Of a stretch of 64,000 bases of DNA, positions 33,246-36,148 are shown in pieces. Under the pieces are notes generated by a model that had not been told where the DNA came from, did no database searches, and saw only the letters and a program-made list of their open reading frames with translations. The position numbers were made by a program, and so were the translations under genes. Every line of letters starts with the position of its first letter. Position 1 is the stretch's first letter. This stretch comes from an uncultured Bacteriovoracaceae bacterium (GTDB lineage: Bacteria > Bdellovibrionota > UBA2394): the NCBI GenBank assembly GCA_964601045.1, contig CAZRLF010000003.1, forward strand, positions 80,210 through 144,209, in the 5' to 3' direction.

Positions 33246-36148
33246 ATCTTTTTTCCATTGACTATAAGTTTTGGAAACCTATCAGCAAGTTTGATCATTT
33301 GTTTTGTACAAAGTTTCGTTAGGTTATTGGTTCTCGCAAACTTAACCGTAATATAATTTAGATCAAGTGAATGAGAGTGTCTGATTTTATTATTGTACAG
33401 AGAGGCAAGTAAACCGGCACTGCCTAAAATTCCACCGCCTATCGTTGAATAAAAATTTATTGCTTCTGAAAAGCTCATAACCCCCCCGGCAACTTGCGAA
33501 CTTGCCGCAATCACACACAGCGTGAGTCCTATGCCAGCCAGAGGCACGCAGGTACTATTATTTAAAGCAAGTCTAAACGCTTCATTATCTTTCCATTTAG
33601 AAGTACGAATAAGAACCTTTACCACTGATGACTTAAAACGATCATCAAAGGCGCCAAGCCTTCGAATCGAATCATACAAACTTAAAATGAACCATCCCTC
33701 AGACAGAAATCTGCTGGCTTTCAAAGCCTGACTTAACTGCGTACTCTGAGATTTGACAAAGTACTGCTTGTCAAAAAAGTATTTTTTATCGTTTCCATCC
33801 ATTTCAATCAGGGCTTGAAAGAAAATATTAACAACAAGTCTGTTAATATTCTTTATCTCATAAAACTCTTTTACTGAGAACTTTGCCAAGACTCGCTTCA
33901 GTTTACTAAATTGCCTCTCATAAGTTCTAAGGATTTCTAATTTTACCTTGCTAAATATAAATTCAATGTCTTCCTTAGAATTAGGCAATTCCATTATTAA
34001 AAGGGATAATCGATATAAATCTGTCAGAGATACAGCTCTCTCTGCGAGGTCTATCAAAAGGGGTGTAATAAAATAAATTTTTAACTGATCATGAAAATCA
34101 GACAAACGACCCCTATTCGATTCAGAAGTCCAATAAAGGTAAATCAACTTGCTAACGTATTCATATTTTTTAGACGCATCCTGTTCTCTTTTAATCCAAC
34201 CTAAATCTATTCGACTAAAAATATGGTGGATCTCACTATCCAACAAATAAATCTTAATAAGCTTATCCACAAGGAGGCTAAGAGAGTCCCAATCGGATAC
34301 TTTACCAGCTAAATTTAGAGCTATTGGTAATACATAACTTTTTGTAATTTCACGCTCAATACTTTCACCTTCTTGTCCGATTTTTCGACTTTGTTTACAA
34401 ATCTCAAGCAATTTGTCCAGATCTTGCTCTTTTGAAACACTTAAAACTATTTTGTCATAATTTATTTTTCGTAAAATTTTTGATCGATCGATTGCCGACA
34501 ACTGATAAAACGCTGGCAAAGAATTAAGTTCTCTGAACTCTTCAAAACTTTCAATTTTTGCTGCTTTCGAAGAAAACCATGGCAGTAAGAAAGTTTCATA
34601 AAGAAGGTCCAATTCAAGAGCTGTGACTTTGGATGGGATGGGAAAACTCTTAAGGTCTGCATCAGTAATTTTTTTATTCTCAAATTTTTCGAGGATCTGA
34701 GAGACAGAAATGATCTCACGATAGACACCCTGAGGCTTTGAAAGTACAGCACTATCTTTCACCACATAGGCACGAACATCATAAGGATACGAAATAATTT
34801 GAATTCCAAAATAGCCGGTAAATTCTTCAATATCTCCGATTCGTTTGAATTGACTGTAAAGAGCCCGTCCCTTCCCCTTTGTAATATCGACAATTCGAGC
34901 CTCTGAAGAAACTTTGAATCTTATTAACCGCTCTTTTGACCCCCCAAAATCAATTGAATATTCTATATTCTTCTTGTTTACACCATAAAGGCCAGCTCCA
35001 GCTCCGCCGTAAGTAGATGGCAAAATGCCCTGTGAGATTATCGATCTAAAAGACTCATCGGTTCGCGTACCATGATAAAAATCTAAATCTGAAAACTCCG
35101 CAGAAACATCAATAAAAACGTCTTCATACTTCATTCCATATTTTTTTAAACGATCGACAATTATATCTTTAGATAAAGGAGCTTGAGCAAAAACATACTG
35201 ATTAATCGGCCCCAAGATATCAGAAAACCGAGCAACTAATTTGTCCAAGCCGAAAAACTTAAAAAGCAAAAAAGCCGCAGTGGGGTTTGTATAAGATCGA
35301 AACGATTTATGAATCGAGCTTTGGCTCCAAAACATGAACTGTTTATTCTTAAGCATTGATTTAAGAGACGAATCGGTGAGTGCGCCTAAAACTATCTTTT
35401 TAATATTCAATAGTAATTGAGGCTCAATATCGTAAAGAATTTTTTCCTCAGGAAAATCTTTCCCATAAAGATAGAAATAATTCATGGCCAAGCTACGCGC
35501 ATATCGAATTACAAGAAGAATGGGATGATTTAGTCCTTTAAGAGCATATTTAGTTTTTTCAAAATCTTCGGCGGCTGTAAAATGTACGGTGGGCTTGCCC
35601 TCATAGATTTCTTTAATACCGTCACCAAAGCCTTTCCATAGCAGAAATCCGCTCTTTGAAAGTCGAATTTTTTCTATCGGTATATAACCCTGATTTCTCT
35701 CACTCTCTTCAGCCTCCGAACCAGGAGCGACACGATTTGAATCAATACGATCTATTTTCTTGACCTGAAAAATGCTGGCCAGATGGGACTGAACAGGACC
35801 TTGGCTTACAATATCTACATCGGAATCACCGATAATAAATTCGCGCACATCAATAATTTTCTTATTTCTAAGCAACTTAACTTTACCTGCAACTTCATTT
35901 CTGCTTTTTAAATTCTTAAACTCTCCCCTTAGCCAATAAAGATAATCTCGTGTAGTACCTCCAAAAAACTCAGCTTCAGAATCAGACTTCCAGATAACTT
36001 CGAAGAGATTCACTTTAGGGGCCAGTTCTTCGGCTAGAGATCTGAACTCATTTAAACTCATAAGCTCGGTAAATTGAGATTTCTCACTTCCAAATGCCGA
36101 AACACTTAAAATCAAAAGAATTGTAAAAACTAAAATAACCTTATTCAT
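33242..36148 (-). CDS. Large secreted protein, paralog A2 (NTase-like N-terminus plus PARP-like ART-like module)
   Basis: Clear signal peptide MNKVILVFTILLILSVSAFG. EFFGGTTRDYLYWLRG ... GDSDVDIVSQG. FYHGTRTDESFRSIISQGILPSTYGGAGAGLYGV (residues ~357-390; His codon at 35072-35074). Its start overlaps the stop of the upstream paralog B1 by 1 nt. Confidence 0.65.
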   Translation of the reverse strand: MNKVILVFTILLILSVSAFGSEKSQFTELMSLNEFRSLAEELAPKVNLFEVIWKSDSEAEFFGGTTRDYLYWLRGEFKNLKSRNEVAGKVKLLRNKKIIDVREFIIGDSDVDIVSQGPVQSHLASIFQVKKIDRIDSNRVAPGSEAEESERNQGYIPIEKIRLSKSGFLLWKGFGDGIKEIYEGKPTVHFTAAEDFEKTKYALKGLNHPILLVIRYARSLAMNYFYLYGKDFPEEKILYDIEPQLLLNIKKIVLGALTDSSLKSMLKNKQFMFWSQSSIHKSFRSYTNPTAAFLLFKFFGLDKLVARFSDILGPINQYVFAQAPLSKDIIVDRLKKYGMKYEDVFIDVSAEFSDLDFYHGTRTDESFRSIISQGILPSTYGGAGAGLYGVNKKNIEYSIDFGGSKERLIRFKVSSEARIVDITKGKGRALYSQFKRIGDIEEFTGYFGIQIISYPYDVRAYVVKDSAVLSKPQGVYREIISVSQILEKFENKKITDADLKSFPIPSKVTALELDLLYETFLLPWFSSKAAKIESFEEFRELNSLPAFYQLSAIDRSKILRKINYDKIVLSVSKEQDLDKLLEICKQSRKIGQEGESIEREITKSYVLPIALNLAGKVSDWDSLSLLVDKLIKIYLLDSEIHHIFSRIDLGWIKREQDASKKYEYVSKLIYLYWTSESNRGRLSDFHDQLKIYFITPLLIDLAERAVSLTDLYRLSLLIMELPNSKEDIEFIFSKVKLEILRTYERQFSKLKRVLAKFSVKEFYEIKNINRLVVNIFFQALIEMDGNDKKYFFDKQYFVKSQSTQLSQALKASRFLSEGWFILSLYDSIRRLGAFDDRFKSSVVKVLIRTSKWKDNEAFRLALNNSTCVPLAGIGLTLCVIAASSQVAGGVMSFSEAINFYSTIGGGILGSAGLLASLYNNKIRHSHSLDLNYITVKFARTNNLTKLCTKQMIKLADRFPKLIVNGKKI

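Follow-up and report, generated by a model that had tools for sequence, protein, structure and literature searches.

Four secreted-looking paralogs of a Bacteriovoracaceae bacterium pair a divergent class-II nucleotidyltransferase-like module with an ADP-ribosyltransferase-like module

We analysed a 64,000-nucleotide stretch of a contig (CAZRLF010000003.1) from an uncultured Bacteriovoracaceae bacterium, referred to below as the window, which carries on its minus strand four large open reading frames (ORFs) encoding paralogous proteins (Table 1). A1 and A2 belong to one subfamily (A) and B1 and B2 to another (B). In A2, a signal-like segment is followed by a nucleotidyltransferase (NTase)-like module, an ADP-ribosyltransferase (ART)-like module and a variable C-terminal region. 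A1 and A2 are 44% identical over the first module (E=1e-81) and B1 and B2 are 58% identical (E=3e-120). Between the subfamilies, BLASTP gave a local match only, at the helix carrying the NHP/NPP-RY motif (E=3e-5), but a profile built from A-type sequences alone still recovered B1 and B2, and comparison of the two profiles with each other gave a 96.6% probability (E=5e-10) over 222 columns (A2 59-310, B1 63-313). Judged by these comparisons, the similarity among the four paralogs is well beyond chance. One base of the B1 stop codon also belongs to the start codon of A2 (TAATG, 36148-36150), which makes it probable that these two genes, one B-type and the other A-type, form an operon with a shared mRNA and are translated in a coupled manner. 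The TTG-started translation of B2 has itself no entry in the protein collection; a library protein, P0132, whose N-terminal ~330 residues are identical to B2 where aligned, looks like the same protein begun at Met3.

An earlier note on this DNA, made from the sequence alone, had described an N-terminal module shared by all four proteins, and every motif that it quoted is found in the translations of the four ORFs. The module itself is real, but its length of ~200 residues was an underestimate: the interval then proposed (35474-36046) covers A2 residues ~35-225, whereas the module occupies ~300 residues (A2 ~30-330) and comprises a head and a helical neck. Its motifs in A2 are FFGGTTRDYLYW (with GGT at residues 63-65), GDSDVDIVS (D110 and D112), GYIPIEKI and NHPILLVIRY (residues 207-216), which in the B type take the forms LFGGTAAGF, TQDADLVVDG, GLIEIT and NPPIFSVVRY. 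We counted conservation, in A2 numbering, in 148 representatives of the family, each from a different cluster at 50% identity. The glycine and the two aspartates of the GGT and DxD motifs are nearly invariant (G64 100%, D110 100%, D112 99%), as are R67 and D68 (97% each), E150 (97%), Q153 and G154 (99%), E159 (99%), N207 and H208 (99%), R215 (100%) and R218 (97%). Residues of this kind at the best-conserved positions are what a Pol-beta active site would be expected to show. The spacing between the second glycine and the first aspartate had been noticed as longer than canonical, and so it is: 143 representatives have a median of 46 residues and a range of 39-47 (46 in A2), compared with 13 in the CCA-adding enzyme of Bacillus stearothermophilus (Bst CCA), because of a ~30-residue insertion present throughout the family. 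The insertion is structured, with a helix at residues 83-94 according to DSSP of the A2 model.

Table 1. Positions in the window of the four paralogous genes and of the modules and motifs of their products.
Feature	Residues	Window position	Strand	Motifs, basis or identity
A2 gene	968 aa	33242..36148	-	ORF; identical to library protein P0011
A2 signal-peptide-like hydrophobic N-terminus	1-20	36089..36148	-	MNKVILVFTILLILSVSAFG followed by S; hydropathy scan
A2 NTase-like head and neck module	~30-330	35159..36061	-	
A2 GGTTRD, counterpart of class-II motif A (GGxVRD)	63-68	35945..35962	-	conservation, hhalign
A2 family-specific ~30-aa insertion between GG helix and DxD strand	76-105	35834..35923	-	helix 83-94
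A2 DVD, putative metal-binding carboxylates on beta-strand	110-112	35813..35821	-	conservation, model, alignment
A2 neck helix, counterpart of class-II EDxxR...RAxRF region	207-218	35495..35530	-	NHPILLVIRYAR
A2 ART-fold module	~345-480	34709..35116	-	YHGT 358-361, S378, GAGLY 384-388, Q450
A2 variable C-terminal region	~481-968	33245..34708	-	homology end, hydropathy, no Pfam match
A1 gene	885 aa	28884..31541	-	ORF; identical to P0010
A1 N-terminal module	~34-330	30552-31442	-	
A1 module motifs		GGT 31332-31340; DAD 31191-31199; NHP..RY 30882-30911	-	
A1 ART motifs		YHGT 30453-30464; GAGLY 30372-30386	-	
B1 gene	890 aa	36148..38820	-	ORF; identical to P0131
B1 N-terminal module	~35-320	37861-38718	-	
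B1 module motifs		GGT 38614-38622; DAD 38491-38499; NPP..RY 38110-38139	-	
B1 ART motifs		AHET 37762-37773; GNGFY 37648-37662	-	
B2 gene	816 aa	52872..55322	-	ORF, TTG start
B2 N-terminal module	~28-320	54363-55241	-	
B2 module motifs		GGT 55128-55136; DAD 55005-55013; NPP..RY 54624-54653	-	
B2 ART motifs		AHET 54267-54278; GYGFY 54153-54167	-	

We used AlphaFold2 (AF2), run on A2 residues 22-330 with an alignment of 13 sequences, to predict the fold of the module. The best model had a mean predicted local distance difference test score (pLDDT) of 91.4 and a predicted template modelling score (pTM) of 0.90, and all five models had pLDDT values of 90.2-91.4. The prediction shows a Pol-beta-type head domain plus a helical neck. 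Its elements run from a strand (60-62) and the GG-capped helix (64-75), through the inserted helix and the strand bearing DVD (110-114), to a short helix, a strand (131-135), a helix (145-153), an extended segment (155-164), a further strand (167-169), a helix (177-183) and a long helix (209-228). This is, by our own comparison, what we take to be the order of elements in the head and neck of the class-II B. stearothermophilus enzyme. Class-II enzymes also headed the structural matches of the model: two tRNA-processing enzymes entered as 'Poly A polymerase' (4wby, score 10.3; 3wfo, 9.4), a CCA-adding enzyme (3h37, 9.7), a bacterial poly(A) polymerase (3aql, 9.4) and the CCA enzymes of Arabidopsis (9kma, 9.3), B. 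stearothermophilus (1miv, 9.3) and human (1ou5, 9.1). The resemblance to a Pol-beta or class-II NTase head that had been suggested from the motifs, with fold prediction named as its test, is thereby supported at the level of the fold. The Foldseek comparison proposed alongside it returned no match to the PDB.

Sequence comparison gave a fainter form of the same correspondence. With hhalign, the family showed no match to the single E. coli CCA sequence and none in global mode; a weak match appeared only against a class-II alignment of 5 and then of 125 sequences, the latter comprising E. coli Cca and PcnB, three PDB sequences and 120 database relatives. This profile is shallow, with an effective number of sequences (Neff) of 2.65, because the added relatives were mostly enterobacterial PcnB. 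The full module gave only a local pairing of AEFFGGTTRDYL with AYFVGGAVRDLL (P=4.5e-3 to 6.4e-3 overall), which sets GGTxRD against GGAVRD of Bst CCA. After deletion of residues 76-105, the match improved from P=4.5e-3 to P=2.7e-4 with a probability of 41.5% (P=0.49 for a reversed-template control), and GGTxRD paired with GGAVRD, SDVDI with GDVDI (D40 and D42 of Bst CCA), GdGxxEI with fgGxxdl, and LRYxR with LRMMRA (of LRMMRAVRF). The B subfamily aligned in the same register (P=4.5e-3, against 0.56 for its reversed control), pairing QDADLVVDGSKEQA with GDVDIATSALPEDV (QDADLVVDG..EQA with GDVDIAT..PEDV) and WEVRLL with YEVTTF, the strand that bears the third carboxylate (E79) of the Bacillus enzyme.

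Several results weigh against this placement. No sequence method was significant alone for the class-II link: the unmodified module matched the class-II alignment with a probability of only 6-8%, and the deletion that improved the match was chosen post hoc, so that we regard it as corroboration and not proof. The Pfam model of the class-II enzymes, PF01743 (PolyA_pol), matched neither the four paralogs nor six long relatives, HMMER profiles of the module (from 4 and from 13 sequences) found nothing significant among PDB sequences, and there is the Foldseek result given above. The motifs themselves also depart from the canonical set. In the A subfamily, Gly occupies the place of the third carboxylate, with D133 (90% D, 7% E), E150 and E159 as candidates for that role, and the B subfamily, with GGTAAG, lacks RD after GGT while keeping DxD. 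In CCA-adding enzymes and poly(A) polymerases, RRD (motif B) recognises the ribose and EDxxR (motif D) is the template for the base. The position of RRD is here QG[FY] (99%), and that of EDxxR is NHPxL in the A type (N-H 99%) or NPPxF in the B type; with both gone, nucleotide binding by the module is putative. We therefore considered that the class-II match might be an artefact of modelling or convergence and the module an unrelated alpha/beta plus helical fold, an idea encouraged by the 13-sequence alignment behind the AF2 models, by the Foldseek result and by the weakness of the profile evidence. We find it hardly credible, given pLDDT values of 90-91 in all five models and a motif-by-motif correspondence that appears in the same order independently in two subfamilies. 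Nothing corresponds to the body and tail, the domains that bind tRNA in class-II enzymes: the module stops at residue ~330 and the ART fold comes next, and versions that stand alone end after the neck. On balance, we have high confidence in the step of fold and homology, namely that the module is a new and very divergent family with a class-II NTase head and neck fold. It is best placed outside the CCA-adding enzymes and poly(A) polymerases, as neither of these, because RRD and EDxxR, the third carboxylate of the A type, the RD of the B type and the body and tail are not class-II-like.

The second module has, in prediction, the split beta-sheet of an ART fold, so that the architecture that had been suspected earlier, an NTase-like module upstream of an ART-like one, is borne out at fold level. 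The motif [YF]HGT...S...GxGLY stands directly after the N-terminal module in at least 93 of the 136 relatives with enough sequence. Its conserved positions are H359 (99%), G360, T361, S378 (100%), G386, Y388 (99%) and D421, followed by D450 (97% Asp), Y454, Y456, K464 and N465. H359 and Y388 lie on predicted strands and D450 just before another (451-454), and the module would be an ART of the diphtheria toxin (DT)/PARP clade (H-Y-[EDQ]). D450 would be the third, acidic residue of this set and the likely catalytic acid, Asp rather than Glu. The ART region gave no match at sequence level, either to Pfam or, as an HMMER profile, to PDB sequences. A2 itself has Gln at residue 450 (window 34799-34801), and because this is the presumed position of the catalytic acid, the ART activity of A2 may be altered or reduced compared with that of A1.

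We next consider how widely this family extends. A word-indexed search with A2 residues 1-330 gave nine relatives, of which the named ones all come from Bdellovibrionota metagenome-assembled genomes (MAGs). A 13-sequence HMMER profile run against 1.84 billion cluster representatives recovered 660 at E<=1e-3 and 313 at E<=1e-30 (clusters at 50% identity), with A1, A2 and B1 themselves present in that library. Among the best 153 of the 660, the module is nearly always N-terminal, with ~530 residues (median) after it, and the homology of relatives to the window proteins spans ~470-520 residues and then ends. When GTDB species were searched with one genome each, 22 family loci came to light, often with several copies per genome. 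All are in Bdellovibrionota-type MAGs (Bacteriovoracaceae, Pseudobdellovibrionaceae, 'Deltaproteobacteria', Bdellovibrionia) bar one labelled Sulfitobacter (JBLHVN010000002.1, a 1.27-Mb contig of a Sulfitobacter sp. MAG), the sole member outside such records, for which mislabelling or mis-binning of the genome or horizontal transfer could account. A phage origin of the family was rejected, no relative having been found among IMG/VR viral contigs. The four paralogs gave no meaningful matches in scans with Pfam, NCBIfam, PADLOC and PHROGs, nor did six long relatives with Pfam.

Variants of the architecture occur. Three of the nine relatives (P0006, P0008 and P0009) stand alone, consisting in their 329-359 residues of a signal-like segment and the module only, so that the module can work without an ART. 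These stand-alone versions finish with a Cys-containing tail, as does one at locus L018 (5869-6903), which adjoins a two-component system (a sensor kinase and a sigma-54-type response regulator) with no ART gene nearby. P0019 (1357 residues) has NTase-like modules in tandem, the first (22-289) B-like and degenerate (GGT to GNL, DxD to LEL) and the second (313-661) an intact A-type. Paired genes are seen at two other loci, with a B-type (-1..964, minus strand) divergent from an A-type (1689-4970, plus strand) at L020 and two adjacent A-type copies (1820-4453, minus strand, and 5869-9165, plus strand) at L003.

A signal peptide in all four proteins had also been assumed in the earlier note. A hydropathy scan does find a hydrophobic N-terminal segment in each of them, and in 105 of the 128 family members with complete N-termini, which suggests that the proteins would be secreted through a putative Sec-type signal. 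The region beyond the ART module in A2 is probably mostly helical and contains one hydrophobic segment (residues 866-884). We rejected the C-terminus as a DT-like membrane-translocation region of the family in general, a hydrophobic segment being present there in only 12 of 131 members and, among the four paralogs, in A2 only.

The analysis establishes the conservation of the motifs, the folds, the architecture and the taxonomic range; catalytic activity, secretion, prey as the target and the role of the C-terminus are inferences. The module is best explained as a very divergent member of the Pol-beta superfamily, closest to the class-II head and neck, and most likely still moves a nucleoside monophosphate, in a metal-dependent manner, from a nucleotide onto a hydroxyl group, because the GG helix cap and the DxD strand, which would hold the two metals, are kept. 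With RRD, EDxxR and the body and tail lost, donor specificity and acceptor would differ from those of CCA-adding enzymes and poly(A) polymerases. The NTase and ART modules would together be the payload of secreted bifunctional effectors, which in a Bdellovibrio-type bacterium would probably act on prey macromolecules, with the variable C-terminus serving targeting or delivery. Use against prey is suggested by the restriction of the family to Bdellovibrionota-type genomes and by the expansion of its paralogs. Taken as a whole chain, the reading we favour, at slightly better than even confidence, is of four secreted bifunctional effectors that join an NTase whose donor pocket has been rebuilt to an ART. 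Delivery is one weakness of this reading. Through a Sec signal a protein reaches the periplasm and no further, nucleoside triphosphates (NTPs) and NAD+ are scarce there, and no route from the periplasm into a target cytoplasm containing them is evident; the rarity of the hydrophobic C-terminal segment tells against it as well, as does the absence of any conserved neighbouring gene, such as one for immunity or a chaperone, across the 22 related loci.

The loss of RRD and EDxxR and the Gly at the third-carboxylate position of the A subfamily would fit a pseudo-enzyme, an NTase fold that binds a nucleotide, NAD+ or the target and positions or regulates the ART as the sole active enzyme. Dependence on a cofactor-binding element is common among bacterial ART toxins, and a clearly degenerate copy does exist in the first module of P0019 (GNL, LEL). 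However, the 99-100% conservation of G64, D110 and D112 in the 148 representatives is hard to explain without catalysis, P0019 retains an intact second module after the degenerate one, and the module also exists alone, in what appears to be a secreted protein, without any ART. We consider this explanation unlikely. In a bolder extension of the effector reading, to which we attach little weight, the proteins are two-headed prey-directed toxins that modify nucleic-acid ends, with a rebuilt pocket that may take NAD+ or an unusual NTP as donor. The NTase and the DT-like ART would then work one after the other or share a substrate, for instance RNA or tRNA 3' ends or an ADP-ribosylated intermediate, and the variable C-terminal region would bring the protein into the prey cell or target it within that cell.

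A different division of labour is conceivable, in which the conserved N-terminal half is mainly a trafficking or export module and the variable C-terminus an interchangeable toxin. A conserved N-terminus with a variable C-terminus does resemble the polymorphic toxin systems (PMC3482391). The conserved half nonetheless comprises two enzyme folds whose catalytic-type residues are conserved, the Pfam and NCBIfam scans revealed no known trafficking domain (Rhs, PAAR, TPS, LXG, etc.), neither the four paralogs nor the six long relatives have a Pfam toxin domain at their C-termini, and no conserved immunity gene lies downstream in the 22 related loci, so that we hold this arrangement to be very unlikely.

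Other genes of the window add to the impression of a region rich in secreted-looking products. Two large Pfam-less proteins, encoded at 31776-33245 (plus strand) beside A1 and A2 and at 55467-57827 (minus strand) beside B2, contain HExxH motifs (FVHELGHLED in the first, which also has a signal-like N-terminus, and LFHELRHSV in the second) and may, from these motifs, be unrecognised metallopeptidases. Immediately downstream of B2 lies a signal-bearing PLD-like protein (51092-52765, minus strand; PF13091, E=9e-18). Three tandem paralogous secreted-looking proteins of 165-176 residues (40077-41657, minus strand) have common Cys-containing C-terminal motifs (C..C near the end) and are followed by a 131-residue ORF (41670-42065). 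The 28-58 kb region as a whole is dense in large secreted-looking unannotated proteins, among them one of 1029 residues (42419-45508) and one of 1745 residues with fn3/Big domains (45718-50955).

Class-II NTases are housekeeping enzymes of RNA 3' ends. If the favoured reading is true, a secreted NTase that has no tRNA domains and is fused to a DT-like ART extends the class-II fold into effector or toxin biology; two-headed toxins, if such they are, would represent a chemistry and a mode of delivery not described for predatory bacteria. Bdellovibrionota-type bacteria kill other bacteria, with a secreted arsenal that is largely uncharacterised, and the family, which is large, has no library model and is present in four copies in the window, is so far confined to genomes of this type bar the Sulfitobacter-labelled contig. 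We found no description of a secreted NTase-ART architecture or of this family in the searchable literature, including that on Bdellovibrio and Bdellovibrionota effectors. As both folds are already known, what is new is the family and the architecture and not a fold. If the donors and acceptors used by the two modules were identified, a new modification of macromolecules might come to light, along with a handle on how predators disable prey, and the family would offer a testable case of two nucleotide- or NAD+-using enzymes in one secreted polypeptide.

Among known systems, the class-II enzymes of PF01743 (CCA-adding, CC- and A-adding, and PcnB) share with the module the GGxxRD-type helix cap and the DxD on the following strand and, in the same order, a GxGxxE/D-I/L element and the LR[YF]xR neck helix, as well as, in the B subfamily, a WEVR strand like YEVTTFR. 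They differ from it in a spacing of 13 instead of 46, in possessing RRD, EDxxR and the body and tail, and in that the family proteins have signal-peptide-like N-termini and a following ART domain. The non-canonical poly(A) polymerases TENT5/FAM46 and a stand-alone 'CCA head domain' protein (2la3) were also matched, with scores below those of the class-II enzymes; TENT5B is a eukaryotic enzyme, and neither it nor 2la3 is described as secreted or ART-bearing, unlike the proteins studied here. ARTs of the DT/PARP clade differ from that of the family in that the latter is preceded by an NTase-like module, an arrangement that to our knowledge has not been seen ahead of the ART in DT-like toxins. 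The plan of a polymorphic toxin, with trafficking domain at the N-terminus, toxin at the C-terminus and an adjacent immunity gene, is not that of these proteins, whose enzyme-like modules are N-terminal. Toxins and effectors with a Pol-beta fold are known in MenT/AbiEii, which are tRNA nucleotidyltransferase toxins, and in the AMPylator DrrA/SidM. RelA/SpoT-like toxin domains occur in polymorphic toxins (PMC3482391). MenT/AbiEii, DrrA/SidM and the RelA/SpoT-like toxins are precedents for NTase-fold toxins that nucleotidylate RNA or proteins or make alarmones.

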